The translations under genes were made by a program, and so were the position numbers. The notes under the pieces were generated by a model. It did not search any database. It was not told where the DNA came from and was given only the letters and a program-made list of their open reading frames with translations. Positions 3,975 through 18,704 of a stretch of DNA of 19,839 nucleotides are shown one piece after another; the first letter of the stretch is position 1, and every line of letters starts with the position of its first letter. The stretch is taken from positions 1 through 19,839 of IMG/VR virus record IMGVR_UViG_2778261687_000006. One strand, written 5' to 3'. This DNA is from a virus. Lineage: Duplodnaviria; Heunggongvirae; Uroviricota; Caudoviricetes.

Positions 3975-3989
3975 TTACCGTTTAGGTAA
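3975..3989. promoter_or_regulatory. Dyad operator-like site TTACCGTTTAGGTAA
   Basis: Inverted half-sites TTACC / GGTAA with a 5-bp spacer, overlapping the start of the leftward transcript. Confidence 0.5.
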
Positions 3990-4017
3990 TAATTATGCGT
4001 ATGTGGTTTGATGTCAA
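3989..4017 (-). promoter_or_regulatory. Candidate leftward early promoter (pL-like): -35 TTGACA at 4012-4017 (minus strand), -10-like TAATTA near 3989-3994
   Basis: Perfect TTGACA on the minus strand, about 16 bp spacer, A/T hexamer; flanked by dyad sites at 3975-3989 and 4037-4051. Confidence 0.4.
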
Positions 4018-4036
4018 TAGATATGAGTTAAAAAAA

Positions 4037-4051
4037 TTACCCGTTAGGTAA
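4037..4051. promoter_or_regulatory. Dyad operator-like site TTACCCGTTAGGTAA
   Basis: Same TTACC-N5-GGTAA dyad, upstream of the pL-like -35. Confidence 0.5.
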
Positions 4052-4060
4052 TCGAATAGG

Positions 4061-4086
4061 CAATAAAAAAGCCGCCATAAGGCGGC
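4061..4086 (-). terminator. Rho-independent terminator for the repressor-like gene
   Basis: On the minus strand: GCCGCC-ttat-GGCGGC hairpin followed by TTTTTTATTG, directly downstream of the stop of the 4109..4693 gene. Confidence 0.7.
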
Positions 4087-4108
4087 TTACTTACTGAAAA
4101 ATATGGTT

Positions 4109-4693
4109 TTATTGTTTGTTTTTTTCGTTCTGGTTGATGACAAATTCAATGTAACTTTCGATCTTTGCTTTCTCGGTTTCGGGTAACAATGCGTAGCGCG
4201 AGCGATCATAGTTGATGGTCGCAGGGTCGTGCGGGTGAATCAGTAATTCATAGCCGTGACGCCCGAATGCGGATGCAACATTCTCCAGGGTGGAAATGGA
4301 AACGCTGACCTCATTGTTTAACAGGCGGCTGATTGTCACCTGGGCGACGCCGGATGCGCGGTGTAGTTTTCCCTGCGTTGAAAGGTCGCGGCTTTCGCTC
4401 ATCCAGCGTTCCAGGTTGTGAGCCGCCAACTGACCAATGTCGCTTGGGCCGACAGGCTGAAAACCTTCCTGAGAAAGCGAGCGATCGATATCAAGCCAGT
4501 TACGGGGTTTATTGGCGGCAGCTTCAATTTTTCGTGCAACCTGGTCGCCGATAACCTTCTTGCCAAGAGCCCAGCGGTTTACCAGATTTGCCTGAGTTCC
4601 AAGTTTTTCAGCCATCCGCGTCTGAACACCATTGAATTCACGGTCGATCAAGTCGTTGAGATTTTGCCTGCGGACGTCCTGGATACTTTTCAT
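4109..4693 (-). CDS. Phage repressor-like protein with two XRE-type HTH domains, no peptidase S24 domain evident
   Basis: 194 aa; two HTH-like segments (TRMAEKLGTQANLVNRWALGKKVIGDQVARKIEAA and LHRASGVAQVTISRLLNNEVSVSISTLENVASAFG). Divergent from a Cro-like gene with operator repeats between. No Ala-Gly/Ser/Lys autocleavage signature seen. Confidence 0.65.
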   Translation of the reverse strand: MKSIQDVRRQNLNDLIDREFNGVQTRMAEKLGTQANLVNRWALGKKVIGDQVARKIEAAANKPRNWLDIDRSLSQEGFQPVGPSDIGQLAAHNLERWMSESRDLSTQGKLHRASGVAQVTISRLLNNEVSVSISTLENVASAFGRHGYELLIHPHDPATINYDRSRYALLPETEKAKIESYIEFVINQNEKNKQ

Positions 4694-4748
4694 TTTCTGG
4701 AAAATCGCCTCATATCTGAATCAGAAGATGATTCAATTTAAAGCAATA

Positions 4749-4822
4749 TTACCCAACAGGTAAATGCACCTCACGGGTAACTATCCTTGATTTTTGTTAC
4801 CTTATAGGTGAATATTTATTAT
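4749..4822. promoter_or_regulatory. Immunity-region operator/promoter cluster: three dyad sites (4749-4763, 4766-4780 degenerate, 4797-4811) and a PR-like promoter (-35 TTGTTA 4794-4799, -10 TATTAT 4817-4822)
   Basis: Three TTACC-N5-GGTAA-type sites spaced about 17-30 bp apart between the divergent genes; the third sits in the spacer of a plus-strand promoter 26 bp upstream of the Cro-like ATG. Confidence 0.5.
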
Positions 4823-4847
4823 CTGAAATAAATATCAGGCAATAGCT

Positions 4848-5078
4848 ATGAGCGATAACGGACATTTCGATTTCAAAAAGCACTGGCTTGCACTTACTCC
4901 GGATGAGCGTGAAGCCTTCGCACAGGAAGCCGGAACGACGAGTCACTATATCCAGACTCACTTAACAGGTAAGCGCAAAATGCCAGGTAAGGTATTGATG
5001 GATGGGCTTTTTAAAGCCTGTAAATCAAGACAATGGCTGCGCTCAAAAGCAGAACTGGCATACTTCTTCTACTCATGA
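4848..5078 (+). CDS. Cro-like small HTH regulator
   Basis: 76 aa, divergent from the repressor-like gene; HTH-like segment TPDEREAFAQEAGTTSHYIQTHLTGKRKMP; followed directly by an intrinsic terminator. Confidence 0.55.
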   Translation: MSDNGHFDFKKHWLALTPDEREAFAQEAGTTSHYIQTHLTGKRKMPGKVLMDGLFKACKSRQWLRSKAELAYFFYS

Positions 5079-5100
5079 TATCCAGCCACAACCCTCTGTA

Positions 5101-5122
5101 GACCGCCATCCGGCGGTCTTTT
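5101..5122 (+). terminator. Rho-independent terminator after the Cro-like gene
   Basis: GACCGCC-atcc-GGCGGTC hairpin followed by TTTT. Confidence 0.6.
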
Positions 5123-5133
5123 CATATCTATTC

Positions 5134-5148
5134 GTACCTCAAAGGTAA
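5134..5148. promoter_or_regulatory. Dyad operator-like site GTACCTCAAAGGTAA
   Basis: TTACC-N5-GGTAA family member just after the Cro terminator; an ATATGGTT box follows at 5160-5167. Confidence 0.45.
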
Positions 5149-5161
5149 TAAAAAACCAAAT

Positions 5162-5422
5162 ATGGTTGATCTTTTTTTTGTGTCAGCACAAAATAACCGT
5201 AATCCCAATACCAATAACAGGGCTTACCATGGAAATCATTACACGTATTTCGCTGTGATGCTCGCCACCGGAGAGATGGAACTGCACGAAGTGAAAGGTT
5301 TCTGGACCGACGACGCCAGGGTGAAAACCAAAGTCGCCGCAGATCAGTATCCGTTCCGAATCATCGGGGTAACGGTTAAACCAAAGAAAGCAGGTGGTGG
5401 CTGGAACATCGAAGAGTTCTGA
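5162..5422 (+). CDS. Hypothetical small protein; start codon uncertain (ATG 5162, or internal ATGs giving about 48-55 aa)
   Basis: ORF track entry; the first ATG lies inside the conserved ATATGGTT box and lacks an RBS. Coding status doubtful. Confidence 0.3.
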   Translation: MVDLFFVSAQNNRNPNTNNRAYHGNHYTYFAVMLATGEMELHEVKGFWTDDARVKTKVAADQYPFRIIGVTVKPKKAGGGWNIEEF

Positions 5423-5483
5423 ATCGACGATCTTTTTAGTTATCAATGTAATCAATAAGTTATGTGGATAAGCGAGGGTAAAG

Positions 5484-6197
5484 ATGGAAAGTAATATCAA
5501 AGGGTTAGTTTCCGCCGGGCATGAGATGGCTTCGGAACTGAAAGCAGAATGTGGTGCCGTTGATATGCGCAGTGTGGCAAAGCTGATCAGCGATTTGGCA
5601 ACGCAACTGGAAGTGCAACTGGTGCGTGCTAATGCGCTGGCCGAAGACCACCAGAGAGCCATTGAGTCAATTAAACAGGCTGATTCGGCTGTTAAGTTGG
5701 CACACGAGAAGTTTTCGGCGCTGGCTGCGGAGAATGCAAGACTGAAGGCCGGGGCTATGTATTTCTCATATGGCTCTGAATTTAGTTTCGAGTGTCACAA
5801 AACTGCTGAGGAGGCTATCGCTGCTGCTGAGGCTGCAATTGACGACTATAGAGGCGATGCTTGCGATGGATGGAGCGAAGAGGTCGAAAGCATTTGCTGG
5901 GGGGTAATTATTCAGCAGGCAACCAAGGTCGGTGAACGCAAGAAGAGGAAATGCGACAGAGTATCACCATGGATTGAAAGAGTTTGTGATTATGAGCTTC
6001 GACCTAATGTCGAAACCCCAGCCACCGATGCTTTCCTTGCTGAAGTTCGGGCGCAGGGGGTGGATATGGCTCGTAACGCGATGATTGATTTTGTTGATGG
6101 TGAAGTTGGGCCAAACAAGAACGTTCCGGGGCTGATTAGAGGCGCAGAGATATGCGTAAGTATTGCTGAACAGCTTCGCAAAGGAGGCAACCAGTGA
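5484..6197 (+). CDS. Hypothetical phage early protein with coiled-coil N-terminus (possibly Ea22-like)
   Basis: 237 aa; RBS GAGGG before the ATG; heptad-like Ala/Glu-rich N-terminal region; stop overlaps the start of the next gene. Confidence 0.55.
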   Translation: MESNIKGLVSAGHEMASELKAECGAVDMRSVAKLISDLATQLEVQLVRANALAEDHQRAIESIKQADSAVKLAHEKFSALAAENARLKAGAMYFSYGSEFSFECHKTAEEAIAAAEAAIDDYRGDACDGWSEEVESICWGVIIQQATKVGERKKRKCDRVSPWIERVCDYELRPNVETPATDAFLAEVRAQGVDMARNAMIDFVDGEVGPNKNVPGLIRGAEICVSIAEQLRKGGNQ

Positions 6198-6613
6198 GCG
6201 AAATTAATTACCAGGCACTGCGTGAGGCGGCGGAACGTGCAATTCCAGCAATGGAACGCCTGTTAATGTTGCCAGCTGATGATGATTTGTTAAGTGAACA
6301 GGAACTTAAAGATTACGGTGTGGATATTGATGCGCTCAACGCCTTCAAATTTCTGGCCGGACCAGAAACCGTGCTGGCACTACTGGATGAACGGGAAAGG
6401 AACCAGCAATACATCAAATCCCGCGATCAGGAGAACGAGGATATTGCGCTAACGGTTGGGAGGCTGCTAATCGAAAACGGCCGGCTTGTTGCCGATACGC
6501 TACGCCACTTAGCTGATAACGAAATCGACTCTGATTATTTTGCTATCACCTCAACGAATGAGAACGGTACTGAAATTGATCATGAGATGGCTATTACTGA
6601 GCCGCCAGGATGA
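6194..6613 (+). CDS. Ead/Ea22-like family phage protein (recollection-based assignment)
   Basis: 139 aa; GTG start with strong RBS AAGGAGG 6 nt upstream; N-terminus MSEINYQALREAAERA and VLALLDERERNQQ resemble lambdoid Ea22-like proteins as I remember them. Confidence 0.55.
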   Translation: MSEINYQALREAAERAIPAMERLLMLPADDDLLSEQELKDYGVDIDALNAFKFLAGPETVLALLDERERNQQYIKSRDQENEDIALTVGRLLIENGRLVADTLRHLADNEIDSDYFAITSTNENGTEIDHEMAITEPPG

Positions 6614-6761
6614 TGCACGTGTGCGCTGGCGTATAAAATCGATCAGCAGAAAACGGTGCGGTAAGTGCGGCGAGAGAGTTCCTGTTAATTCATGCCCGTG
6701 TAATGGTGACTCGCAATGCTGGGTGAATAAAGGCTGGCATGAAACGAAATTAATAGTGTGA
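6540..6761 (+). CDS. Possible small Cys-rich (zinc-ribbon-like) protein; coding status uncertain
   Basis: ORF overlaps the 3' end of the previous gene in another frame; C-terminal CGKCGERVPVNSCPCNGDSQCW has CxxC ... CxC spacing. Its stop codon lies inside the GTGACATGTCAC palindrome. Confidence 0.25.
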   Translation: MLSPQRMRTVLKLIMRWLLLSRQDDARVRWRIKSISRKRCGKCGERVPVNSCPCNGDSQCWVNKGWHETKLIV

Positions 6762-6769
6762 CATGTCAC
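6758..6769. repeat. Perfect 12-bp palindrome GTGACATGTCAC, copy 1
   Basis: Read directly; overlaps the stop codon of the 6540..6761 ORF, upstream of the terS terminator. Confidence 0.9.
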
Positions 6770-6810
6770 GAGTAGATTATGCATGATGAATTTGATGGGT
6801 TTTGAATACT

Positions 6811-6837
6811 GCCGCCAACTATGGCGGCTTTATTTTG
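6811..6837 (+). terminator. Terminator-like hairpin upstream of terS
   Basis: GCCGCC-aactat-GGCGGC followed by TTTATTTTG; same stem sequence as the 4061-4086 terminator. Confidence 0.5.
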
Positions 6838-6843
6838 CATGGT

Positions 6844-6872
6844 ACTATTACCACAACGGTAACTATTACCAC
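6844..6872 (+). repeat. Tandem direct repeat ACTATTACCAC (6844-6854 and 6862-6872) immediately upstream of terS
   Basis: GGTACTATTACCACAACGGTAACTATTACCACGG read directly; includes an inverted GGTAA-cta-TTACC arrangement. Confidence 0.8.
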
Positions 6873-6879
6873 GGTGGTT

Positions 6880-7476
6880 ATGATGCCTGCTGAACCTAAA
6901 ACCTATAAACGCAAATCAACGCAATTTAAGCCACTAACAGCAATGCAGGAGGCTTATTGCCAGTCATACATCAAAACGCCTGAAAACCAGACTCAGGCAG
7001 CGATTAACGCAGGATTTTCCCCAAATACAGCGGCAGTTAAAGCCAGTGTCATGATGCGCGATGAACGCATTCAAAAACGGATTGCCGAGTTGATGGAGGA
7101 GCGCAACAAACGAATGCGCGTCAGTGCTGATTACGTTCTCATGCGCCTGGTGGAGATCGACCAGATGGACGTGATTGATATCCTCAACGACGATGGGAGC
7201 CTTAAGCCAATCCGCGAGTGGCCGAAAATCTGGCGCACTACGCTTAGTGGCTTTGATCTGTCGTCGACCATCATGAACATGAACGAGGATTCGATAGAGA
7301 CAATCCTCAAAAAAATTAAATGGCCTGACAAGGTGAAGAACCTTGAGCTGATTGGTAAGCATGTTGATGTCAACGCGTTCAAAGAACGTCTGGATGTTAA
7401 TGTGAATGTGACAATTGCTGATCGCATAGCAGCAGCCAGGAAGCGACTCAAAGAACGTCAGGATGGTAATCAGTGA
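6880..7476 (+). CDS. Terminase small subunit (TerS)
   Basis: About 198 aa from the ATGATG at 6880; positioned immediately upstream of and overlapping the large terminase gene; basic helical N-terminal region (TAVKASVMMRDERIQKRIAEL) consistent with a DNA-binding small terminase. The track's TTG-start extension translates a direct-repeat region. Confidence 0.65.
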   Translation: MMPAEPKTYKRKSTQFKPLTAMQEAYCQSYIKTPENQTQAAINAGFSPNTAAVKASVMMRDERIQKRIAELMEERNKRMRVSADYVLMRLVEIDQMDVIDILNDDGSLKPIREWPKIWRTTLSGFDLSSTIMNMNEDSIETILKKIKWPDKVKNLELIGKHVDVNAFKERLDVNVNVTIADRIAAARKRLKERQDGNQ

Positions 7477-8948
7477 CAGATACAGCGTTATCTCCTGAAG
7501 AGCAGTTGATCGAGGATATTGCAGGGTTCACTCACGATCCGCTTGGCTATGCCCTCTATGCGTTCCCGTGGGGGGAAGAGGGGACTGAACTGGCACATGC
7601 TACCGGTCCACGTCAGTGGCAGGCTGATGCGTTCCGAGAGATACGTGATCACCTGCAGAATCCAGAGACGCGCTATCAGCCGCTTATGCTGGCACGTGCT
7701 TCTGGTCACGGTATTGGTAAATCCGCATTCATCTCAATGCTGATCAACTGGGGCATGTCCACTTGCGAGGATTGTAAGGTCGTGGTGACCGCCAATACCG
7801 ACAACCAGCTACGAACGAAGACCTGGCCGGAAATTATCAAGTGGTCGAACCTTGCTATCACGAAAGACTGGTTCACCTGTACCGCTACCGCGATGTACAG
7901 CAATGATCCTGGGCACGACAAGCGGTGGCGAGCTGACGCAATCCCCTGGTCTGAGCACAATACTGAGGCGTTCGCCGGACTACACAACGAGCGCAAACGT
8001 ATCATCGTGGTATTCGATGAAGCGTCGAACATTGCGGATCTGGTGTGGGAAGTTGCCGAGGGTGCGCTTACGGACGAAGACACTGAGATTATCTGGGTGG
8101 CGTTCGGAAACCCGACGCGTAATACCGGACGTTTCCGAGAATGTTTCCGCAAATATAAACACCGCTGGAAAACTGCGCAGATTGACAGCCGGACGGTTGA
8201 AGGCACTAACAAACAGCAGTTGCAGAAATGGGTTGATGACTACGGGGAAGACAGCGACTTCGTTAAAATCCGTGTGCGTGGCATATTCCCTGATGCATCT
8301 GAATTGCAGTTTATCCCTACCGGTCTTACTGACGAGGCAATGAAACGGGTGGTAACCGCTGCGCAGGTGGCACATGCTCCGGTGATAATCGGCGTTGACC
8401 CGGCATACTCCGGCGTTGATGACGCGGTGATATACCTGCGGCAGGGGCTGCACAGTAAGGTGCTGTGGACTGGCAACAAGACCACCGACGATCTGATTAT
8501 GGCGAAGCGTATCGCTGACTTTGAAGACCAGTATCAGGCCGACGCGGTGTTCATCGACTTCGGTTACGGTACTGGCCTGAAGTCAATCGGTGACGACTGG
8601 GGGCGCACATGGCAACTTGTTCCGTTCGGTGGCGCGTCTACTGACCCGCAGATGCTCAACAAGCGTGGGGAGATGTTCAACTCATGTAAGACATGGCTGA
8701 GGCTGGGCGGGATGCTGGATGACCAGGAAACAGCGGACGACCTGTCGACGGCAGAGTACAAAGTTCGCGTGGACGGTAAAATCGTTATCGAACCGAAGGA
8801 AGATATCAAAGAGCGACTTGGGCGTTCGCCGGGGAAAGGCGATGCGCTATTGCTGACGTTTGCTTTCCCTGTGTCGAAGCGCCTGCGAATTCCCGGTCAG
8901 CAGAACCAGCAAGGCAAGGCCATCACAGATTACGACCCGTTTGCGTGA
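7473..8948 (+). CDS. Terminase large subunit (TerL), ATPase plus nuclease
   Basis: 491 aa; Walker A-like ASGHGIGKSAF, Walker B-like RIIVVFDEASN, C-terminal acidic nuclease-like motif VIIGVDPAYSG. GTG start overlaps the terS stop (GTGA). Confidence 0.85.
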   Translation: MTDTALSPEEQLIEDIAGFTHDPLGYALYAFPWGEEGTELAHATGPRQWQADAFREIRDHLQNPETRYQPLMLARASGHGIGKSAFISMLINWGMSTCEDCKVVVTANTDNQLRTKTWPEIIKWSNLAITKDWFTCTATAMYSNDPGHDKRWRADAIPWSEHNTEAFAGLHNERKRIIVVFDEASNIADLVWEVAEGALTDEDTEIIWVAFGNPTRNTGRFRECFRKYKHRWKTAQIDSRTVEGTNKQQLQKWVDDYGEDSDFVKIRVRGIFPDASELQFIPTGLTDEAMKRVVTAAQVAHAPVIIGVDPAYSGVDDAVIYLRQGLHSKVLWTGNKTTDDLIMAKRIADFEDQYQADAVFIDFGYGTGLKSIGDDWGRTWQLVPFGGASTDPQMLNKRGEMFNSCKTWLRLGGMLDDQETADDLSTAEYKVRVDGKIVIEPKEDIKERLGRSPGKGDALLLTFAFPVSKRLRIPGQQNQQGKAITDYDPFA

Positions 8949-8949
8949 T

Positions 8950-9690
8950 TTATTGCTTATTTTTCACGGCTTCAGCAATCATTCTCTCAGCCTGTGATGT
9001 ATATGTTTTTCGCAAGGGTTCATGGCCCATATGCAATACGATACCTTCCTTTTCTTTTTCCTTTAATTCTTGTATGAGATTATTTATTTTGGCCTCCCTA
9101 TCTTCAAGCATTCTGGCGGACTTTTCTGCCTCAATCTTTAACGCTGCAGCCACTGATTGCATGTTTTCCAGCTTCTTATTCAATTCCAAAACCTTATCGG
9201 AGAGCCTATCTCTTTCCGCCGTTAGCTCACCCATCCTGGCCTGTGACTCCGTAATTCTTTCCTTCATAGCCTGTATGTCTTTTTCGGCGCCAGTCTTAAC
9301 TTTGTCGTATGTCACATCGTGCTTTGCCTTCAGGCGCTGCAGGCGTGTGGCGCGATGAATGCGCTTGGCCTTCCGGTGGTTCTCTATCGAATCGTAATTA
9401 TCAAGAGGTTTGGCTTGCCACTTTGAAATCACGTTGTTGATCCAGGGCATGCCGCCGCACAGGATTATTGCTGAAACACATGGGAATGCTAATACCGTTT
9501 TCCAACTGCTATTACTGGAAATGTAGGTGATCTTGTCGATGATGCTGGAGTCGCTGAGGAGTAAGTATAAAATCGACTTCCAGTTAAAGGCGCACCATGA
9601 CAGTGCGAACGCTCCAAACACTGGATTTCTGACCCTTTGCGCAGCGGTATTAACGGTTGAAGATAGGTATTCTTTAAGTGATTCAAGCAT
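8950..9690 (-). CDS. AT-rich cargo gene: membrane-anchored coiled-coil protein of unknown function (candidate superinfection-exclusion or abortive-infection factor)
   Basis: 246 aa; two hydrophobic segments near the N-terminus, then a long charged heptad-like region (KERITESQARMGELTAERDRLSDKVLELNKKLENMQ). AAGGG RBS. Convergent with terL with a 1-nt gap. Visibly AT-rich compared with neighbours. Confidence 0.55.
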   Translation of the reverse strand: MLESLKEYLSSTVNTAAQRVRNPVFGAFALSWCAFNWKSILYLLLSDSSIIDKITYISSNSSWKTVLAFPCVSAIILCGGMPWINNVISKWQAKPLDNYDSIENHRKAKRIHRATRLQRLKAKHDVTYDKVKTGAEKDIQAMKERITESQARMGELTAERDRLSDKVLELNKKLENMQSVAAALKIEAEKSARMLEDREAKINNLIQELKEKEKEGIVLHMGHEPLRKTYTSQAERMIAEAVKNKQ

Positions 9691-9720
9691 GTCCAGGCCC
9701 TTTTAGGTTTTTTTCTGATT

Positions 9721-9735
9721 CTACCTTTAAGGTAA
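9721..9735. promoter_or_regulatory. Dyad operator-like site CTACCTTTAAGGTAA in the promoter of the 8950..9690 gene
   Basis: Lies in the spacer of a candidate minus-strand promoter (ATGACC ... TAGAAT) about 40 bp upstream of the start codon. Confidence 0.45.
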
Positions 9736-9757
9736 TCTTCGGTCATTATGAAAAACG

Positions 9758-9803
9758 TATCCCTATGAGGGGATAATGTCGTTGATATCCTCTGATGAGG
9801 ATA
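9758..9803. promoter_or_regulatory. Two tandem dyads of a second type, TATCC-N8-GGATA (9758-9775 and 9786-9803)
   Basis: TATCCctatgaggGGATA and TATCCtctgatgaGGATA, 28 bp apart, upstream of the 8950..9690 promoter. Confidence 0.4.
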
Positions 9804-9829
9804 AAACAAAGCCAGCTCATCGGCTGGCT
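9801..9829 (-). terminator. Rho-independent terminator after the 9850..10221 gene
   Basis: On the minus strand: AGCCAGC-cgatgag-GCTGGCT hairpin followed by TTGTTTTAT, about 20 nt past the stop codon. Confidence 0.5.
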
Positions 9830-9833
9830 GTTT

Positions 9834-9845
9834 GTGACATGTCAC
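9834..9845. repeat. Perfect 12-bp palindrome GTGACATGTCAC, copy 2
   Basis: Read directly; 5 nt beyond the stop of the 9850..10221 gene, before its terminator hairpin. Confidence 0.9.
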
Positions 9846-9849
9846 GGTG

Positions 9850-10221
9850 TTATTGCTCGCTTAACTTCTGCTTCAGCAAGTAACCTTCAAGCATCCAGAT
9901 TTTGTTTACAGCATTCTGCCGGGCAATCTTCCGACCAATTTCCGCATCAAAGTTTTCCGGGCTTGCACAGGCGCTCTCTCCGGTGACGGTGAAGCCGTTG
10001 CGCAGCACCAGAACGCAGAACGTCAGCAGAGAAAGTGATTCGTGCGGCTGGTAGTTTACCTCTCCGCCAGTATGTTTCGCTTTTATGGCTACGCCAAAGA
10101 CACCATCTTCTGCTGTGAAATATGCCTCCTGAGCAATAATGCTCTCGATATGGTCTGGCGTAACGCGCGGCGCGGCTAAACCTTTAGCCTGAATTTCAGA
10201 TTCAATGTCTTTGTCACTCAT
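9850..10221 (-). CDS. Conserved hypothetical phage protein (123 aa)
   Basis: ORF with RBS AAGGTGA; sequence feels familiar from enterobacterial prophages but I cannot name the family with confidence. Confidence 0.55.
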   Translation of the reverse strand: MSDKDIESEIQAKGLAAPRVTPDHIESIIAQEAYFTAEDGVFGVAIKAKHTGGEVNYQPHESLSLLTFCVLVLRNGFTVTGESACASPENFDAEIGRKIARQNAVNKIWMLEGYLLKQKLSEQ

Positions 10222-10424
10222 AGTCTAATCTCACCTTAAAAAAATGCCCGGCGAACCGGGCGAACTGGAAGCAATGAGTTATGCCTTCCGTGGCTGTACT
10301 GGTTTACAGCATGAAGTCATCGCAATGGCGTCCTGCTGTAAAAAGGGCGGTGATAGTCCTTCAAGGGAAACCATCACCGCCAAGCCCCTGGAACTTCTGG
10401 CATCACGGTCCTTAGGCGTGATTC

Positions 10425-10501
10425 TGGCGTGGCATGCAGGATTCGAACCTGCGACCAACCGCTTAGAAGGCGGTTGCTCTGTCCAACTGAGCTAATGCCA
10501 C
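10425..10501 (-). tRNA. tRNA-Arg (anticodon UCU), phage-encoded
   Basis: Hand-folded cloverleaf on the minus strand: acceptor GTGGCAT/ATGCCAC, D-arm GCTC-AGTTGGACA-GAGC, anticodon arm ACCGC-CTTCTAA-GCGGT (U33, anticodon TCT, A37), variable loop TGGTC, T-arm GCAGG-TTCGAAT-CCTGC, discriminator G, encoded CCA. Acceptor and anticodon stems differ from host argU as I recall it. Confidence 0.85.
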
Positions 10502-10823
10502 AACGCTGAGAGCACTTAGCCTGTTAAGGCGCCACACTTTGTCGCGGCTCCATAAATGCTCTCATCGTTGCACCCTCGTCTCTTCCGAGGCGTCACACCG
10601 AATCGCCGGGATGGTGAATCCCCGTGCGCGGAATAAAACCGCTCGACTTGCACATTCCGGCTACCTGGTTCGTTTGCCCGAGCAAGGGAGGGTGCCCCTT
10701 AAACGTATCCAGACCGCTATCGTCGCATGTGCCATACGCCGTACTGCTCAACATAAAAGCTCACTCCACCTGTTCAATTTAACGACAAGCCAGTCAGGTT
10801 AGTAACCGGAATGAACTCTTTTG

Positions 10824-10838
10824 TTACCTGAAAGGTAA
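10824..10838. promoter_or_regulatory. Dyad operator-like site TTACCTGAAAGGTAA
   Basis: Lies beside a minus-strand TTGACA (10855-10860) and about 70 bp upstream of a -10-like GATAAT (10899-10904) for the plus-strand operon. Confidence 0.45.
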
Positions 10839-10928
10839 TAATTTGCGCATTAAATGTCAACTGTCTACGACAAGTAAATCATATGTGGTTAAATTGGTGA
10901 TAATTTAATTGCGTACGGAGTCATTGAT

Positions 10929-11186
10929 ATGTGCATGGGTAGCTCACCATCAGTGCCTGCAACACCAGAAGTTCAGGCAGCACCACAGGAGCAGGATGCC
11001 GCCGTTGTTGATGCCCGCGACGAAGAAACTCGTCGCCGTCGCGCTGCTGCTGGTCGTAGTTCTACGCTGCTTGAGGCGGTGCAGAACCGCATGAACGATA
11101 TGTTCAATAAGTCGAATCTCTACCAGTCGCTGCCGGTGTTCAGCGGTATCTGCGTGTTAACTACTCCGTCGCAACTGGCCCACTAA
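10929..11186 (+). CDS. Hypothetical protein (85 aa); may be part of a frame-disrupted larger gene
   Basis: RBS GGAG 8 nt upstream of the ATG. A second frame stays open from 11111 to 11267 without any start codon and translates to protein-like sequence. Confidence 0.4.
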   Translation: MCMGSSPSVPATPEVQAAPQEQDAAVVDARDEETRRRRAAAGRSSTLLEAVQNRMNDMFNKSNLYQSLPVFSGICVLTTPSQLAH

Positions 11187-11279
11187 CGGCTGGCGAATTC
11201 ACTGCTGGTATCAGTCTTGATGTTGATGCCAATACGCCGTATCCGATCCGCTCAAAAGTAACTGGTTAAGGTGATATCG

Positions 11280-11630
11280 ATGTCAGGTGAGAAACCAAGA
11301 TACCGCGTTCTGCGCCTCTCTCATATCCATAACACTCTGTGGCCGGAGGGGGCAGAAATCGAATACGAAGGTGAGCCTGGTAGCGCACTGGAACCTGTTA
11401 ACGATGCAGCCAGACAGGCAAAAGCAAAGGTAGCAGGAAAGGTGTCAATGGCAGCAACCAGTACCAAAATCATCAACGATGTGTCAGATGATGGTGAGCT
11501 GGATAAGCTCCGTGAAGAGTACGAATTGCTCTTTAACGAGAAGCCACACCATAACGCCAAAGCCGAAACGCTCCGCGAGAAGATCGCAGATAACCGGTTC
11601 TGGTATTCAGCGTGGAACATGGAAAGGTGA
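11280..11630 (+). CDS. Hypothetical protein (116 aa)
   Basis: ATG at 11280 with RBS GGTGA 6 nt upstream; acidic, helical-looking sequence. The +1 frame stays open across its last 150 nt. Confidence 0.5.
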   Translation: MSGEKPRYRVLRLSHIHNTLWPEGAEIEYEGEPGSALEPVNDAARQAKAKVAGKVSMAATSTKIINDVSDDGELDKLREEYELLFNEKPHHNAKAETLREKIADNRFWYSAWNMER

Positions 11631-11679
11631 ATTAACGAGAAGTGTTTTCCTGTTTAAATCGTTCCCTATCTCGGTGGTT

Positions 11680-12240
11680 ATGCGTCACTGGTCACGCGCT
11701 ATGGGTATGCCGTCTGCTGGTGGGCGTGCGGCATATATTGCGACGTTTATTGCCAGTACGACCATTCTTGGAGCTTTGTCGCAGCAACTTAACGACCTTG
11801 CGTCTGGTCGTAATCCTCGCGAGATGACAGGAGAAGATGCCGCAAAATTCTGGCTTGGTGCTCTATTGAAAGGTGGTGGTCTTGGCCTTTACGGTGACTT
11901 TTTATTGTCAGATCACACTAGGTACGGAAGCGGCGCGCTGGCGTCGATGCTTGGCCCGGTGGCTGGTCTGGTTGATGACGTAGTGAAGATTGCTCAGGGC
12001 ATACCGTTAAATGCTGTGGAAGGGAAGAGTGAGCAGACTGGTGGTGATCTGGTGAAGCTGGGGAAAGGTTTGATGCCAGGTGCGAATCTCTGGTACTTGA
12101 AGGCGGCTCTCGATCACATGATCTTTAACCAGATGCAGGAGTATTTTTCACCAGGCTATTTGCGTAAAATGGAGCAACGTTCGAAGAAAGAGTTTAACCA
12201 GACATACTGGTGGCGACCTCAGGATGTCACTCCGCAATAA
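11680..12240 (+). CDS. Hypothetical protein with Gly-rich hydrophobic segments; start poorly defined (ATG 11680 or GTG 11674), possible frameshift fusion with the upstream ORF
   Basis: Long open frame 11479..12240, protein-like only after about 11640; no well-spaced RBS at the candidate starts. Confidence 0.45.
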   Translation: MRHWSRAMGMPSAGGRAAYIATFIASTTILGALSQQLNDLASGRNPREMTGEDAAKFWLGALLKGGGLGLYGDFLLSDHTRYGSGALASMLGPVAGLVDDVVKIAQGIPLNAVEGKSEQTGGDLVKLGKGLMPGANLWYLKAALDHMIFNQMQEYFSPGYLRKMEQRSKKEFNQTYWWRPQDVTPQ

Positions 12241-12249
12241 GGATGAGAA

Positions 12250-12390
12250 ATGATTGCTTTTATTCTTGTTGTATTTGTGCTTGTTGCCCTTGGCGTTATG
12301 AATCGTAAATGTATCATTGAAGACGGTGAATTTGCTGTAGCAGTTGTTTTGATATTATCTGGTGTAGCAGGGTACATAGGTTTGTCATAG
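12250..12390 (+). CDS. Small hydrophobic peptide (46 aa, two predicted membrane segments); not in the ORF track
   Basis: Hand translation MIAFILVVFVLVALGVMNRKCIIEDGEFAVAVVLILSGVAGYIGLS; RBS AGGA upstream; stop TAG at 12388-12390. Confidence 0.35.
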   Translation: MIAFILVVFVLVALGVMNRKCIIEDGEFAVAVVLILSGVAGYIGLS

Positions 12391-12397
12391 CTTGAGT

Positions 12398-12409
12398 GTG
12401 ACATGTCAC
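12398..12409. repeat. Perfect 12-bp palindrome GTGACATGTCAC, copy 3 (extended form TGTGACATGTCACA)
   Basis: Read directly; in the convergent gap between the 12250..12390 ORF and the 12434..12691 gene. Confidence 0.9.
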
Positions 12410-12433
12410 AGGCCGCTTTCGCGGCCCTTAAAT

Positions 12434-12691
12434 TTACCGGATTTGTTTTCGTAATTGTTCGGCACAATAGTCGAGATGTGTTTGCAGATCCTGCATAGAC
12501 ATCTGTGAGCTGGTGACGTAGTTAATCAGTGCAGTCAGTTCGGCAAGTGGGCCATCGACATTAAATCCATCCTTATCGAGATCCCGGAGTAATTTCATCA
12601 AGTGCGATCCCTCCACCAGTGACCTGACGCCTCCCGGCGTGTGAATCCTTTCGGTAAATCCGTCTTCCAGTGGATAGTGATACTGCTGCAT
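12434..12691 (-). CDS. Hypothetical protein (85 aa from the ATG at 12691)
   Basis: ORF track 12434..12757 with a GTG at 12757; the internal ATG at 12689-12691 has GGAG about 8 nt upstream. Divergent from the tailspike gene. Confidence 0.45.
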   Translation of the reverse strand: MQQYHYPLEDGFTERIHTPGGVRSLVEGSHLMKLLRDLDKDGFNVDGPLAELTALINYVTSSQMSMQDLQTHLDYCAEQLRKQIR

Positions 12692-12767
12692 CTTATCTTC
12701 TCCATGCAATAACTGTATATTTATGCAGTAGCAAATAATTTGTTTGCTATCCAGCACGTTTTGCGAA

Positions 12768-12782
12768 TCACCTGAAAGGTAA
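12768..12782. promoter_or_regulatory. Dyad operator-like site TCACCTGAAAGGTAA
   Basis: In the divergent intergenic region between the 12434..12691 gene and the tailspike gene; followed by the ATCCATATGTGGTT box (12809-12822) and a -10-like TAGAAT (12833-12838). Confidence 0.45.
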
Positions 12783-12886
12783 TATCTGTTCGTATTTATG
12801 GTTTATCTATCCATATGTGGTTTTTCAGGTAATAGAATAACCGGATATGCGGCGCAACGGGTGCTGCGACTATCTGGAGATTTAAC

Positions 12887-15571
12887 ATGACGGTCTCAAC
12901 CGAAGTTGACCATAACGAATATACAGGTAATGGCGTTACGACTTCATTTCCTTATACCTTTCGAATTTTTCAGAAGTCAGACCTGGTTGTGCAGGTTGTT
13001 GATCTGGATGAAAATATAACCACTCTTGTGCTTGATACTGATTATTCGATTACAGGTACTGGTGGATACACGGGGGGGAATGTTGTTTTATCAACTGCTT
13101 TAGGCAATGGGTATAAGATTTCTATTTCAAGAGAGTTGCCGGTTACCCAAGAAACAGACCTAAGGAACCAGGGGAAGTTTTTTGCAGAAGTGCATGAGGA
13201 TGCATTTGATAAGTTAACTATGCTTGTTCAGCAGGTAAGAAGTTGGTTTAGTCTGTCGTTAAGAAAACCATCCTTTGTAGCCAACTATTATGACGCCCTG
13301 GGCAACTATATCAGAAATCTCAGGGATCCATCTCGGCCGCAAGATGCTGCTACAAAGAACTATGTAGACAGTATTTCTGAAACCAATCTCAACAGAACGC
13401 TAAGAACACCTGAACCTATACCCACACTTCCATCTGCCGCTGTCAGGGCGAACAAGATAATAGCCTTCGATAATAGTGGGTCTCCTTTTGTAACATTGCC
13501 GCCATCTGGTTCTGCCACTGATGTTCTTGTTGAATTAGTGAAACCAACAGGTGCCGGGTTATCAGGTTATAGCGATTCTATCCAGTATCCTGACGGTACT
13601 GTTGGTAGTGCCATTAAAGATCAGAATTTCAGGAAAAAAATAATCTACAAACTTCCATTTCAGTTCGCTGGGTATTCTGATGCACTGGCGGCAATTGGAG
13701 CTGGAAGCATCATATACCCGCAGGGTGCTGACTATGATGATGATGGTCTACTCTTCATTAACTATGTGCCTAATGCTGGAGGGGCGCTTAGGGTTATAGT
13801 TGTTTATAACCAGGCAGGAGAGCAAGTAACGTGGTTTTATAGTCCAAACAGTAGTAATCAGTCTGTGGCTATATATGGCGGAAGTTCATCACGTAGATTG
13901 TATGACAGACGTCTTGGGGATGATTTTGTTTATTATTATGACATAACCACATTACCCGCAGCAGGTAGCACGCTTTCAGGGCACACAATAACGACAATTC
14001 AGTCGGCTGGATCACATATGTGCATTGAGGGTAATTTACTCTTCTGCACATTAAACGCGACACCAGTAGGATTGTCACAATCACAGACTGTTATAAATTC
14101 TTATCGTCTTGATACAGGTGAGAAGCAGGGAACAATAAATGTCTCTCAGATGCTTACAGGGTTTGCAACTCCAGAGCTCTCCCCTACCTACTATTACATG
14201 GTATGGAAAATTCAGGGTATAGCATACAAAAATGGGATCCTTCATATAGGCGTAGGTGGCAGTTATCGTCCTACATTTGATGATGCAAAATACCCTGTTC
14301 ATGATTACGGAGTCCTCAGAGTGTCACTCTCTGGTGAGTTAATAGACCACTCTGTTGTGAAATCAGATAAGTTGATGACTTATCTGGCATCAAACGGTTG
14401 CACCGTCTCAAGAACAGAGTCAGAGGGATGTTTCAAGCACCCTGACGGCACTATCCATTCAATTCTTATCGGTGATATGGCTGAATCATCTCCTAGCACA
14501 CCCAATGGCATTGTTATAATGAGGGAGTTTTCAAGAGATGGGTTTGACATGCTGGATGCCGCTTCAGGATACTGCCCGATACCAACATATGGATTTAATA
14601 GGCTCATGCGTTCGGAGCATGGGGAACTGCGCGATCCAGTCTTAAATACAGTCTTCAGCAGTGTTACTCAAATTCTTGATTTAATGGCTTCATTAAACAT
14701 AACTGAGTTCTCTTGGTTTTCAACCATTGCTCCTTCGCTCACCACGATACCTGGTCTTAACTACGTAATAGGACAAATTTACCATGTTACTAATATGAAC
14801 AATGCAGGATTCATTATTGAATCCTCCGGTACTGTACTTGGGCTAGAAATTTATTCCGTAGTTGGCAGAATTGGGTCATGGACAGCTACAAGGCGCTCAT
14901 TGTCAGGAACAAAGCTTAATATTAATAATTCAGGTGGTTTAGGCAAAATATCATTTACAACGTCAACAGGAAAAGAAGTTGGCATCGCTCAAATAAACTA
15001 TACCGGAACCTCTACGCCTCTTGTTATCGGCTCAGGGGGTACTTTAAACCCTAATGCTATTTTCTTCTTCACAAATCCGACAGTGACAAGTGAAAGTGGT
15101 GGGACTCAATCTCTTCAGATTTACAGTGATCAGGTATTGCCTGGCGTCGCTAGCGCGCAGTCTAACGGGAGTGCATCATTTAAATGGACTCAGGTCTACG
15201 CCGATTCTGGTTCCATTAACACATCTGACAGAAGAAAGAAGACAGATTTCGAGGATATAAGTGAAGCCGAAAAGCGTGTGGCTATCAAGATTAAGGGAAT
15301 GATTTGTCGGTACAGAATGAAGGATGCGGTAGCTATTAAAGGCGATGGCGCAAGATATCATATAGGTGCAATTGTCCAGGATGTTATCTCTGCGTTCGAG
15401 GATGAAGGGCTAGATCCCATGCGTTATGGGATGGTTTGCTACGATAAGTGGGATAAGAAGGAACCAGAATATGATGAAAATGGAATCATGACATTCTCAG
15501 GTTGCGAAGCTGGTGATGGTTACTCTTTGAGATATGATGAGATGTTATGTTTCATTATTTCTGCTATTTAA
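12887..15571 (+). CDS. Tailspike / tail fibre protein with C-terminal intramolecular chaperone (peptidase S74-like self-cleaving domain)
   Basis: 894 aa; N-terminus MTVSTEVDHNEYTGNGVTTSFPYTFRIF resembles the T7-gp17-type particle-binding domain and, from memory, epsilon15-like tailspikes; Ser/Thr/Gly-rich central region; C-terminal ...INTSDRRKKTDFEDISEAEKRVAIKIK... matches the endosialidase-type chaperone domain. RBS GGAG. Confidence 0.85.
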   Translation: MTVSTEVDHNEYTGNGVTTSFPYTFRIFQKSDLVVQVVDLDENITTLVLDTDYSITGTGGYTGGNVVLSTALGNGYKISISRELPVTQETDLRNQGKFFAEVHEDAFDKLTMLVQQVRSWFSLSLRKPSFVANYYDALGNYIRNLRDPSRPQDAATKNYVDSISETNLNRTLRTPEPIPTLPSAAVRANKIIAFDNSGSPFVTLPPSGSATDVLVELVKPTGAGLSGYSDSIQYPDGTVGSAIKDQNFRKKIIYKLPFQFAGYSDALAAIGAGSIIYPQGADYDDDGLLFINYVPNAGGALRVIVVYNQAGEQVTWFYSPNSSNQSVAIYGGSSSRRLYDRRLGDDFVYYYDITTLPAAGSTLSGHTITTIQSAGSHMCIEGNLLFCTLNATPVGLSQSQTVINSYRLDTGEKQGTINVSQMLTGFATPELSPTYYYMVWKIQGIAYKNGILHIGVGGSYRPTFDDAKYPVHDYGVLRVSLSGELIDHSVVKSDKLMTYLASNGCTVSRTESEGCFKHPDGTIHSILIGDMAESSPSTPNGIVIMREFSRDGFDMLDAASGYCPIPTYGFNRLMRSEHGELRDPVLNTVFSSVTQILDLMASLNITEFSWFSTIAPSLTTIPGLNYVIGQIYHVTNMNNAGFIIESSGTVLGLEIYSVVGRIGSWTATRRSLSGTKLNINNSGGLGKISFTTSTGKEVGIAQINYTGTSTPLVIGSGGTLNPNAIFFFTNPTVTSESGGTQSLQIYSDQVLPGVASAQSNGSASFKWTQVYADSGSINTSDRRKKTDFEDISEAEKRVAIKIKGMICRYRMKDAVAIKGDGARYHIGAIVQDVISAFEDEGLDPMRYGMVCYDKWDKKEPEYDENGIMTFSGCEAGDGYSLRYDEMLCFIISAI

Positions 15572-15576
15572 AAAAT

Positions 15577-15600
15577 GCCCCGTAGAGGGGCTTTTTTTTT
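15577..15600. terminator. Bidirectional rho-independent terminator shared by the tailspike and acyltransferase genes
   Basis: GCCCC-gtaga-GGGGC hairpin flanked by AAAAA upstream and TTTTTTTTT downstream. Confidence 0.75.
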
Positions 15601-16588
15601 ACTTGGCTATCACCCTATTTAACAAAGGAGTTTTTGAAAGTATCACAGCTATCAACAGGGACGCAAAGACATAAAATATAGTTGCAACAGGTATTCCCCA
15701 TGCATAATTTGATACTGGAGCTATTTTCCATGTTATAAATATAATAATAGGATGTATAAGATAAATTCCAAATGCATATTCGGAAATTAGAGTTACAAGT
15801 TTATTTGCATTTTTGCTTATTCTGTCTGCGTATCCAATGCAGGCGCAGGTTGTTGCTATTGCTGTCATGCCAACAATGGGGCTAAAGTTGCTTAGGTTTA
15901 CTCCTTTGATCCCATGAATCAATATAGCCTTATTTGTAAAGACACATATAACCGCAAGGATAACAGCAGTTAACGAAATGAAAGCGCGTAATTTTATGAT
16001 ATGGCTTTCAAGTCGTGCAACTATACATCCGGCAAAAATATAGAACATTAATGTACTTACAAATGGAATATCTATAGATGGTGCATTAGGAATAAAATTC
16101 TTTAGTTGTGGGTATAAAGAATTTCCATAGAATAGAATTAAAAATATCATCACGTTATACCGCAAATCCATGCGTTGGCATCCAATAATTATCATCGGGA
16201 GAAACATGTAAATCGCAATATAATGATACATAAACCATAGATGAACAGCAGATGGCTTCATGATATTAAAGCTGCTTACTGAAGTATCTTTAAATATAAT
16301 GTAATAAGATGCATATATTACCCACCAAAATACAAGAGGGACAAATAAGACATTAAAACCCTTTTTAATGTAATCATGGAATTCGAATTCCTTTTTATGG
16401 TAGTAAAGAAACCCTGTTATAACTATGAAAATACCAATGCATTGCTTTGATATGGCGCTATATACGTTAGCCCAATCCCAATCAGGCGAAGACTTTGCAC
16501 CAACTGGACCAGCGGCAACATGCAGCAACACCACCAGCACAATGGCGATGAAACGAGCTAAAACTACGCCATAGTTCTTCTCATTCAT
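15599..16588 (-). CDS. Acyltransferase family 3 integral membrane protein, likely O-antigen acetyltransferase (lysogenic conversion)
   Basis: 329 aa, about 10 hydrophobic segments; N-terminal VLARFIAIVLVVLLHVAAG matches the acyltransferase-3 signature (R-x-x-x-H in TM1); visibly AT-rich; sits directly after the tailspike gene as serotype-converting acetylases do in P22-like/Sf6-like phages. Confidence 0.8.
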   Translation of the reverse strand: MNEKNYGVVLARFIAIVLVVLLHVAAGPVGAKSSPDWDWANVYSAISKQCIGIFIVITGFLYYHKKEFEFHDYIKKGFNVLFVPLVFWWVIYASYYIIFKDTSVSSFNIMKPSAVHLWFMYHYIAIYMFLPMIIIGCQRMDLRYNVMIFLILFYGNSLYPQLKNFIPNAPSIDIPFVSTLMFYIFAGCIVARLESHIIKLRAFISLTAVILAVICVFTNKAILIHGIKGVNLSNFSPIVGMTAIATTCACIGYADRISKNANKLVTLISEYAFGIYLIHPIIIFITWKIAPVSNYAWGIPVATIFYVFASLLIAVILSKTPLLNRVIAK

Positions 16589-16641
16589 TTTAATATTTAT
16601 CCAATATTTTTAATGGGTTCCACAATCATTAACTACAATAT

Positions 16642-16656
16642 ATACCCATAAGGTAA
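16642..16656. promoter_or_regulatory. Dyad operator-like site ATACCCATAAGGTAA
   Basis: Between the acyltransferase and lysis genes; followed by ATCCATATATGGTT (16685-16699) and a -10-like TATGAT (16706-16711). Confidence 0.45.
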
Positions 16657-16752
16657 TTTAGTTAAGAGTTATCAGAGGTAAACTTATCCATATATGGTTT
16701 ATTGTGTATGATGGACTTACCAACTAAGGGGGTTCATTATGCACAGTAAACG

Positions 16753-17166
16753 GTGGCTGATATGTCAGCTCAGCTAACCAGTGAGTCTTTAAATCAGTGG
16801 CTTAGCATGGGTTCTCTGGCTGCTGTCATTGTCGGGGTTCCTCCAGAGGTCGCTCTTGGTGCTTTATCCGGCGCGGTAATATTTATTACCTCTGCCGTTG
16901 AGTATCCAATACGCCGTCGGGTTCTCCTATCGATGCTCAGCTTTCTCTGCGGGCTACTCTTCTACAAACCGACTGCATCAATTCTTATCGGCGTAGCCAG
17001 CATGATCCCAACTATCACGCAGGACTCATTCGAGAAAGGGATCGTCTTTTCTGCTGGCGCGTTCGTGTCGGCAATAGTCGCAGTACGTATTGGAATCTGG
17101 CTCTATCACCGCTCAGACAATCCACGCGATTTAATCCCTGGGAGAAAAGACGATGACAACTCATGA
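16753..17166 (+). CDS. Holin-like membrane protein (about 3 TM segments, charged C-terminus); start uncertain (GTG 16753 or ATG 16762)
   Basis: First gene of the lysis cassette; hydrophobic segments and C-terminal [19 protein letters not shown] strong SD AAGGGGG (16725-16732) is positioned for an ATG at 16739 in another frame (12-codon ORF). Confidence 0.5.
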   Translation: MADMSAQLTSESLNQWLSMGSLAAVIVGVPPEVALGALSGAVIFITSAVEYPIRRRVLLSMLSFLCGLLFYKPTASILIGVASMIPTITQDSFEKGIVFSAGAFVSAIVAVRIGIWLYHRSDNPRDLIPGRKDDDNS

Positions 17167-17461
17167 TCTGCTTTTACTTATTGCCAATGCAGTTATTTGT
17201 ACTGGCATAGCAATTCGCGTTGTCACATTCCGGCGTAACGGATCTCAACATCGAAGATGGGGAGGGTGGCTTGCTTATTTCCTTATTGTTGCTGCGGCCA
17301 GTATTCCTGTTCGTGTCGTCTATGCAATCTGGTTACGCACGCCAATGGCTGTGGATTTATCTGAGGTTATTATCAACGCTGTCATGCTTGCCGCTGTTAT
17401 TAAAACACACGGTAACGTTGTTCAGATTTTCAAAATATCGAGGTCTAAACATGGAGATTAA
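17153..17461 (+). CDS. Second holin/antiholin-like small membrane protein
   Basis: 102 aa with three hydrophobic segments; RBS GGGAG; overlaps both neighbours, immediately upstream of the endolysin. Confidence 0.5.
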
Positions 17462-18574: not shown

Positions 18575-18704
18575 TTTCCGGTGACGGTATATAAAACGGT
18601 ACTAGAAAAATTAAGTTTTGGAAAAATGTTATCACTCAATTGGTTATGATTGTCGTAAATAATTGAGTGGGAATGATTTGACCCTGCACTATGAATGAAC
18701 AAAA

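Follow-up and report, generated by a model that had tools for sequence, protein, structure and literature searches.

The question raised by this locus is what turns on the late genes of a temperate phage of the epsilon15/phiV10 type. The window, i.e. the whole 19,839 nt stretch of IMG/VR record IMGVR_UViG_2778261687_000006 that was analysed, is a deleted phiV10/epsilon15-like (Uetakevirus) prophage of Escherichia coli, and its 19.8 kb match Escherichia phage phiV10 and other Uetakevirus members piecewise at ~95 % identity. A preliminary description had drawn attention to a short sequence, referred to here as the box, that recurs upstream of -10-like hexamers at plus-strand promoters in the place of a -35 element. 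The box was examined in the window, in the annotated complete genomes of phiV10, epsilon15, Tyrion and SPC32H, in 80 viral contigs recovered via the first protein of the lysis operon and in 57 genome loci recovered via a gp55-like protein. It proved to be a recurrent and conserved element, and we tentatively propose that it marks a class of factor-dependent late promoters that lack a -35 element.

Five copies are present in the window, all of them intergenic and all beside a dyad of the form TACC-N5-GGTAA. Three are on the plus strand at late promoters, namely AATCATATGTGGTT (10877-10890) at the promoter of the structural-gene operon, which is truncated here, ATCCATATGTGGTT (12809-12822) at the tailspike promoter and ATCCATATATGGTT (16686-16699) at the promoter of the lysis cassette, where the 5' edge of the box is a mosaic junction with variable cargo genes. 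The remaining two are in the early region: a weaker copy, ATGCGTATGTGGTT (3995-4008, plus strand), lies within the spacer of PL, a leftward early promoter, and a palindromic copy, AACCAAATATGGTT (5154-5167, strand not assigned), is found 3' of the terminator of the cro-like gene. These are the copies that had been described previously, except that the lysis box starts at 16686 rather than 16685 and its TATGAT hexamer is at 16707-16712 rather than 16706-16711.

The recurrence is not expected by chance. The ATCCATATGTGGTT pattern with up to three mismatches has 10 matches in the window, compared with 2.0 expected, and none of 200 shuffles reached 10. For half of these matches (5 of 10), one of the 12 TACC-N5-GGTAA dyads of the window is no more than 60 nt away on the 5' side (binomial P = 4.6e-7). 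The complete phiV10 genome carries the box at the same five positions and, although only 6.7 % of that genome is intergenic, five of its six core matches are in intergenic DNA (P = 7.6e-6). The box is a 14 bp imperfect palindrome, for which AACCATATATGGTT is the commonest form. Its conserved core, CATATRTGGTT, is asymmetric, with a nearly invariant right half, and the three leftmost bases of the box vary freely (AAC, ATC, AAT, ATT, ATA, TTC, CTC, ACC or TAC). The GGTT end is towards the -10 in the late, DUF1064/RuvC and post-cro promoters, and the late promoters have the copies closest to the palindrome. When viral contigs were scanned for exact matches to AACCATATATGGTT, those listed were all single-copy, many of them on contigs from environmental metagenomes and at least some on contigs that carry a Uetakevirus locus. 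The single-copy matches listed are at the level expected by chance, and no further multi-copy phage group was revealed among them. Sites for the host factors IHF, DnaA, Fis, CRP and PhoP and for sigma-54 were compared by eye, using consensus sequences, and none fits all copies. With respect to a role at the RNA level, a tRNA was the sole Rfam match. The box is assumed to act at the DNA level, because the late boxes are upstream of the proposed starts and beside genes on the opposite strand.

Each late box is followed by a -10-like hexamer on the plus strand. In the structural promoter, this is GATAAT (10899-10904; AATAAT in most relatives), 8 nt 3' of the box. In the tailspike promoter it is TAGAAT (12833-12838), 10 nt from the box and part of an invariant GGTAATAGAAT (12828-12838) in which it follows the Rep-type half-site GGTAAT, and in the lysis promoter it is TATGAT, 7 nt from the box. 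Relative to the predicted starts, the box occupies about -33 to -20 in all three promoters. A two-hexamer sigma-70 scan that detects PL and the cro promoter found no plus-strand promoter at 10877-10904, 12809-12838 or 16686-16712, and the best -35 matches in the late promoters of the window are 2-3 of 6. The earlier statement that the box is in the -35 position with no sequence resembling TTGACA is borne out. The -10 hexamers retain A2 and T6 in all lineages (AATAAT, TATAAT, CATGAT and CATAAT, with GATAAT, TAGAAT and TATGAT in the window), and the variants found at lysis promoters (TATGAT, TATAAT, CATGAT and CATAAT) are always 7 nt from the box. The box and the -10-like hexamer are all that the three late promoters have in common. 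Since a -10 hexamer by itself makes a poor promoter and a -35 is lacking, a positive determinant should be needed at these promoters, and the box is the only shared candidate. In the stretches that separate the box promoters from the start codons at 10929, 12887 and 16753, a terminator scan detected no intrinsic terminator, which is not the arrangement called for by antitermination of the Q or AlpA type.

The late-promoter boxes are retained in epsilon15, Tyrion and SPC32H and in prophages of Citrobacter, Klebsiella, Buttiauxella, Pantoea, Rahnella and Samsonia. Orthologues of the structural box were found in 17 genomes or prophages, and at this promoter the box and the AAATTGGTAATAAT that follows it are kept in Citrobacter, Klebsiella, Buttiauxella, Pseudescherichia, Pantoea and Rahnella prophages. 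Recognizable versions of the box, GCAAATATGGTT and TACCATATATGGTA, are present at the tail-fibre and putative lysis promoters of the Samsonia prophage. The tailspike promoter, which was compared in 54 contexts, has three islands of conservation, the dyad, the box and GGTAATAGAAT, with 0.0-1.0 bits between them. The box reaches 1.7-2.0 bits at 11 of its 14 positions, against 0.4-0.9 bits in its flanks, and GGTAATAGAAT has 2.0 bits at each position. The lysis promoter was found in 41 distinct upstream contexts that differ in their serotype-conversion cargo; here, conservation is at most 0.7 bits before about position 2-4 of the box and 1.5-2.0 bits from there on. As conservation rises only at the box across these 41 contexts, all that the lysis promoter needs appears to start there and, since the mosaic junction coincides with the 5' edge of the box, this would also be where the promoter starts as a transferable unit. 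Judged from these alignments, the box is under selection as a discrete element.

Further features were seen around the late promoters. In the tailspike and structural promoters (12828-12838 and 10895-10904, respectively), the -10 is overlapped by a Rep-type half-site, GGTAAT (GGTGAT in the structural promoter of the window), situated 4-5 nt 3' of the box, and the GGTT of the box and the GGTA of the half-site form a 9 nt direct repeat. The invariance of GGTAATAGAAT exceeds what a -10 alone needs. The 5' leader of the tailspike gene (12847-12866; about 19965-19985 in epsilon15) includes a conserved, hairpin-forming stretch, GCGGCGCAACGGGTGCTGC, that has no T-run. Similar leaders carry 'RNaseIII mRNA processing' annotations in the epsilon15 record, including a site at 24755-24817 that overlaps the lysis box.

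Because the box is in the -35 position, no -35 hexamer is present and the box appears to be selected as a discrete element, a factor-dependent class is the most economical reading of the late promoters. We give nearly, but not quite, an even chance to the view that the box marks a class of late promoters without a -35 in which it replaces the -35 contact. The box would then be a cis-acting core-promoter element of Uetakevirus phages, and a phage-encoded transcription factor would dock on it in place of the -35 contact at the structural, tailspike and lysis promoters, switching them on during lytic growth. Occupancy of the boxes within the spacers of early sigma-70 promoters (PL in phiV10-like phages and the DUF1064/RuvC promoter in all) may shut off early transcription, and the Rep repressor, bound to the dyads, would silence late or divergent promoters in the lysogen. 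The location of the best boxes at late promoters fits an activator and not a Cro-type repressor used for early shut-off.

The preliminary description had left the choice between an activator and an alternative sigma factor open. The asymmetry of the core, which regularly faces the -10 with the same end, speaks for the box as a -35 equivalent read by an alternative or phage-encoded sigma. However, no sigma-family gene was detected in Pfam and PHROG scans of the window open reading frames and the small open reading frames of phiV10, and none is annotated in phiV10, epsilon15, Tyrion or SPC32H. In addition, the late boxes end 7-10 nt from the -10, far closer than in known -35/-10 spacings, the distance varies (0, 7, 8, 10 or about 21 nt over all copies), and comparison by eye with consensus sequences revealed no resemblance to sigma-54, -32, -28 or -24 promoters. 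The sigma half of the earlier suggestion is, on these grounds, highly improbable.

The early-region copies are placed differently. PL (TTGACA-17-AATTAT, 3989-4017, minus strand; 10 of 12 matches in the two-hexamer scan) is located between dyads at 3976-3989 and 4038-4051. The box at 3995-4008 is within the 17 nt spacer and abuts the PL -10, which itself abuts a dyad. This copy had been suggested to drive an antisense transcript towards the 3' end of the repressor gene, an idea that is not supported, as the box is part of the PL spacer and no usable plus-strand -10 was found after 4008. The same layout, i.e. -35, 3 nt, box, 6 nt -10 and dyad, was found at the rightward DUF1064/RuvC promoter in every genome examined. 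Downstream of the cro-like gene, a rightward early promoter has a -10 of CAAAAT (5189-5194) and a -35, TTGATC (5166-5171), into which the right end of the box at 5154-5167 extends. This arrangement is kept in 14 lineages.

These repeated layouts bear on the possibility that no dedicated factor binds the box, which would be either part of a duplicated promoter module or an easily melted or bent CATATATG core that aids the host RNA polymerase. The combination of box, 6 nt -10 and dyad is common to PL, the DUF1064/RuvC promoter and the leftward face of the post-cro region, which resemble duplicated cassettes. The similarity of the post-cro region stems in part from the -35 TTGATC and an A/T-rich stretch upstream, which persist in distant relatives such as L112 and L130. 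However, about 2 bits at each of 11 positions, G and C included, in more than 100 independent contexts exceeds what a spacer or a melting element needs. The PL copy is perfect in Tyrion but is not present in epsilon15, where PL is otherwise intact, and the late promoters have no -35 element. We therefore consider a box that is bound by no dedicated protein quite unlikely.

The dyads that accompany the box are, from three lines of sequence evidence, operators of the Rep repressor. They are annotated in the epsilon15 RefSeq record as 'protein_bind: repressor, lysogeny' (the box is not annotated there), three of them are found between the Rep and cro-like genes, and the window Rep has full-length homology to SPC32H Rep (PDB 5D50; E = 4e-42). 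The window rep gene (4109-4693, minus strand) encodes two helix-turn-helix (HTH) domains (Pfam HTH_3). At the late promoters, the dyads are TACCTGAAAGGTAA (10825-10838), 52 nt 5' of the structural box, CACCTGAAAGGTAA (12769-12782), 40 nt 5' of the tailspike box, and TACCCATAAGGTAA (16643-16656), 43 nt 5' of the lysis box. The first abuts the -10 AATTAT of a leftward promoter, TAGACA-18-AATTAT, that faces tRNA-Arg, and the last is inside the spacer of a leftward promoter, TTAACT-17-TATATT, that faces the acyltransferase gene. Where a dyad is present, its distance from the box in the relatives is 43 +/- 1 nt at the lysis promoter, 40 nt at the tailspike promoter and 52 nt at the structural promoter. 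The distances from dyad to -10, 64 nt (lysis), 64 nt (tailspike) and 74 nt (structural), correspond to whole helical turns, with free sequence in between. Assuming a start 7 nt after the -10, the dyad centres would be at about -69.5 or -79.5 (the reference positions for class I sites are -61.5, -71.5 and -82). A class-I-like activator site, as had been proposed for the dyad, is nevertheless not what these data indicate, as the dyad is the Rep operator, is missing from 13 of the 41 lysis-promoter contexts and overlaps divergent leftward promoters.

Some additional features of the Rep operators were recorded. Pairs of dyads 62 nt apart flank the whole of PL and of the DUF1064 promoter, and tandem dyads 17-18 nt apart are found before terS and in the rep-cro region. 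Paired dyads were noted at 3976-4051 and 6849-6880 in the window and at 35071-35146 in phiV10. Paired dyads would suit a tetramer with two DNA-binding pairs. Upstream of a small gene for an Ant-like anti-repressor (12434-12757, minus strand) is a LexA-box-like sequence, CTGTATATTTATGCAG (12709-12735), and epsilon15 has a perfect CTGT-N8-ACAG in the corresponding place. SOS-controlled anti-repression has reportedly been found for SPC32H, and the LexA-like site upstream of the Ant-like gene fits such control.

The main alternative is that the box is itself a purely negative operator. It would be bound by the Cro-like protein or by Rep, as a weaker second site for the tetramer or through the C-terminal XRE-type HTH, and, bipartite with the dyad, would occlude early and late promoter cores. 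Each box overlaps a core-promoter element (a spacer, a -35 or the region from -33 to -20) at a variable distance from the -10, and box and dyad are always found in the same lineages, with constrained spacing and roughly in phase. According to the discussion of Kim et al. 2016 in PMC9638917, the DNA-binding domains of the Rep tetramer are arranged as two pairs. Rep also has the second HTH_3 domain. The Cro-like protein shows weak homology to the N-terminal domain of Rep (E = 0.004) and has a different recognition helix. In phage ZX5, over-expression of Rep lowered holin and endolysin mRNA about 10,000-fold (PMC9782041).

Several points tell against a purely negative operator. The dyad conserves its outer TTACC and GGTAA around five free bases, whereas the box conserves its six central bases and its right half, which ends in GGTT rather than GGTAA, and is variable in the left half. 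With conservation patterns this different, it is unlikely that one Rep N-terminal pair reads both sites. The two elements are alike in occurring in the same genomes and intergenic regions, in an ACC...GGT flavour and in their fixed spacing. The Rep C-terminal domain is said to have been assigned, by Kim et al. in 2016, to oligomerisation and Ant binding. Further, the 13 lysis promoters that have no dyad have a perfect box, a Cro-type repressor with its best sites at late promoters is biologically implausible, and repression does not account for the firing of promoters that have no -35. Overall, a purely negative operator is somewhat unlikely. A related view is that box and dyad form a bipartite module read by a few related HTH domains, which we regard as unlikely. 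In one variant, the N-terminal HTH of Rep would bind the dyad and its C-terminal XRE-type HTH the box, clamping every late promoter. In the other, the Cro-like protein would act as a dual-function switch, shutting off early promoters where the box is in the spacer and turning on the late ones without a -35, where the box is at -33 to -20.

Returning to the activator reading of the box, a number of observations weigh against it. The distance from box to -10 is variable (0 nt in PL and the DUF1064/RuvC promoter, 7-10 nt in the late promoters and about 21 nt in the post-cro region), which is better tolerated by a repressor operator that overlaps the core than by an activator site. The dyad-box spacings are restricted to 19-20, 40-43 or 52 nt, roughly whole helical turns, and this constraint hints at cooperation with Rep. 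In phiV10, a TTAACC that overlaps the box is a weak (4 of 6) -35 match and some basal sigma-70 activity is possible, and lysis promoters have a second decent hexamer (TATTGT or TATCAT) directly adjoining the box, as in the early promoters. No known late-activator family was detected in the Pfam and PHROG scans of the window open reading frames and the phiV10 small open reading frames, and no homologue of Lpa was found, the best E value being 0.52 with tblastn against the window, phiV10, epsilon15 and Tyrion, and 15 with BLASTP against gp55. The gp55-like protein (phrog_536), the gene for which sits in the classical 'late regulator' position, was judged an unlikely binder of the box. Homologues with 48-80 % identity are encoded in about 40 prophages and in phage ZF40 without any box or dyad, the gene is linked to another palindrome, GTGACATGTCAC, and its N-terminal half is deleted in the window prophage. 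There, the C-terminal 52 codons are kept (6609-6761, plus strand) and the N-terminal 60 codons are gone, such that the remnant (within 6423-6761) is the C-terminal zinc-finger half only.

The GTGACATGTCAC palindrome is a separate observation. Three operons in the window end with it, placed after a stop codon and before an intrinsic terminator (6769-6780, 9838-9849 and 12398-12409). In about 42 of the 57 prophages (loci L087-L143, just after position 10336), the palindrome comes after the stop codon of the gp55-like gene, in many cases overlapping it. Prophages with the gp55-like gene and GTGACATGTCAC are from many genera of the Enterobacterales and, in one case, Pseudomonas, and include some that have no dyads or boxes. 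The arrangement resembles a regulator gene followed by a site for its own product and a terminator, all placed before the late genes, and is reminiscent of Q and qut. No match to GTGACATGTCAC was found in a literature search.

The search for an activator or sigma-like gene that had been suggested yielded no sigma-like gene; the Cro-like and the PerC-like proteins are among the candidates. The box is always accompanied by the early region with Rep, the Cro-like gene and gp42. Rep homologues are confined to the Uetakevirus-like group, and homologues of the Cro-like protein and gp42 are found with the box even in the most distant loci. As all three co-occur with the box, phylogenetic profiles cannot separate them. 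The Cro-like HTH protein (phrog_35; gene at 4848-5078, plus strand) has a recognition helix that is conserved but different from that of Rep (TTSHYIQTH compared with QANLVNRW) and could therefore read another site; we infer that it is a candidate for the box binder. The PerC-family protein, encoded by a 'transcriptional activator' gene (835-1134, minus strand; Pfam PF06069, E = 6e-7), may be considered a second candidate. Each of the four complete genomes retains both a PerC-family and an AlpA-family protein. Searches with the sequences of the Cro-like, gp42 and PerC-like proteins against the PDB gave no informative matches.

Among known systems, the layout that appears closest is that of the Lpa-dependent late promoters of phage P1. 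They also have no -35 and consist of a palindrome, AAGTGACTT, followed after 4-9 nt by a -10 (the box palindrome ends 7-10 nt before the -10). P1 likewise has several late operons, each with its own copy of the element, and many scattered operators for the lysogenic repressor (C1), some of them beside late promoters. However, CATATRTGGTT is unrelated to AAGTGACTT, the box is longer and is centred near -26 compared with -22 in P1, and the Uetakevirus box is also found within early sigma-70 promoters in phages that encode no Lpa homologue. The middle promoters of T4 have a MotA box, (a/t)(a/t)TGCTT(t/c)A, at -30 that replaces the -35 at a fixed distance from the -10 and acts together with AsiA. 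Here, too, an asymmetric, oriented box stands in for the -35 upstream of a normal -10, but no MotA or AsiA homologue is annotated (family scans only) and the host and phage type are unrelated. Protein p4 of phi29 binds at about -82 and works through the alpha C-terminal domain. The resemblance is in logic only, as one type of site is found at late promoters that need help and within early ones, and there is no relationship in sequence or protein to the box system.

The window prophage is defective. One end is an attR core, attgagtgggaatgatt, near 18662; this core was named attP in PMC9782041. The replication genes are deleted from the 5' end of the gp42 homologue (about 5229-5250) to a DUF1064 fragment, with the gp42 homologue (5229-5260) truncated after about 8 codons and joined to that fragment. 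The region between the gp06 and gp20 homologues has lost most of its structural genes, and the structural operon (10929-12240) is reduced to pieces of the gp06, gp08 and gp20 homologues. The early-left operon, Rep, the Cro-like gene, the terminase, the tailspike gene (12887-15571), the acyltransferase gene (15599-16588, minus strand) and the lysis cassette (16753-18574) are intact, and the tailspike, acyltransferase and lysis genes are still behind box promoters. The tRNA-Arg is at 10425-10501.

Two further features were recorded. An open reading frame of 68 amino acids (3298-3504, minus strand) between the RecE-like gene and the gp38 homologue encodes a winged-helix-like sequence, MKPTLLSLLRGGKHSIRDMAKILGISRSKVSWFIAELERRKW. 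No separate open reading frame is annotated there in phiV10. The only family to which this one could be matched, weakly, is an uncharacterised PHROG, and it is possibly another candidate regulator, specific to a sub-lineage. Two palindromes of the form TATCC-N8-GGATA, TATCCCTATGAGGGGATA (9758-9775) and TATCCTCTGATGAGGATA (9785-9802), are found between an inserted open reading frame of 246 amino acids (8950-9690, minus strand; phrog_4780) and a gp49/66-family gene (9850-10221, minus strand). We take TATCC-N8-GGATA to be the HipB operator pattern; nothing resembling a HipB gene was seen in the window.

None of the phiV10, epsilon15, Tyrion and SPC32H records carries an annotation of the box. A full-text search for the motif returned only unrelated primers, but the primary epsilon15 and SPC32H papers are outside the coverage of that search and an earlier description is possible. 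In the ZX5 paper, four promoters were predicted by software and the box is not mentioned (PMC9782041). In searchable papers and database records, activation of the late genes is not described for phages of the epsilon15/phiV10/SPN1S type, and only the repressor/anti-repressor switch has been studied.

These phages serve as reporter phages for E. coli O157 and convert the serotypes of Salmonella and E. coli. As the lysis promoter appears to move with the lysis cassette from the box onward, its position would explain where serotype-conversion cargo is exchanged. An 11-14 bp element that marks the structural, tailspike and lysis promoters provides a handle for mapping starts, for pulling down the binder and for building lytic-specific expression cassettes, and makes the late-gene switch of Uetakevirus directly testable. 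If the factor were the Cro-like protein or Rep, the early-to-late switch would be unusually compact and, if box and dyad do form a bipartite module, a temperate podovirus would make this switch without a late regulator of the Q, Ogr, Lpa or sigma type.

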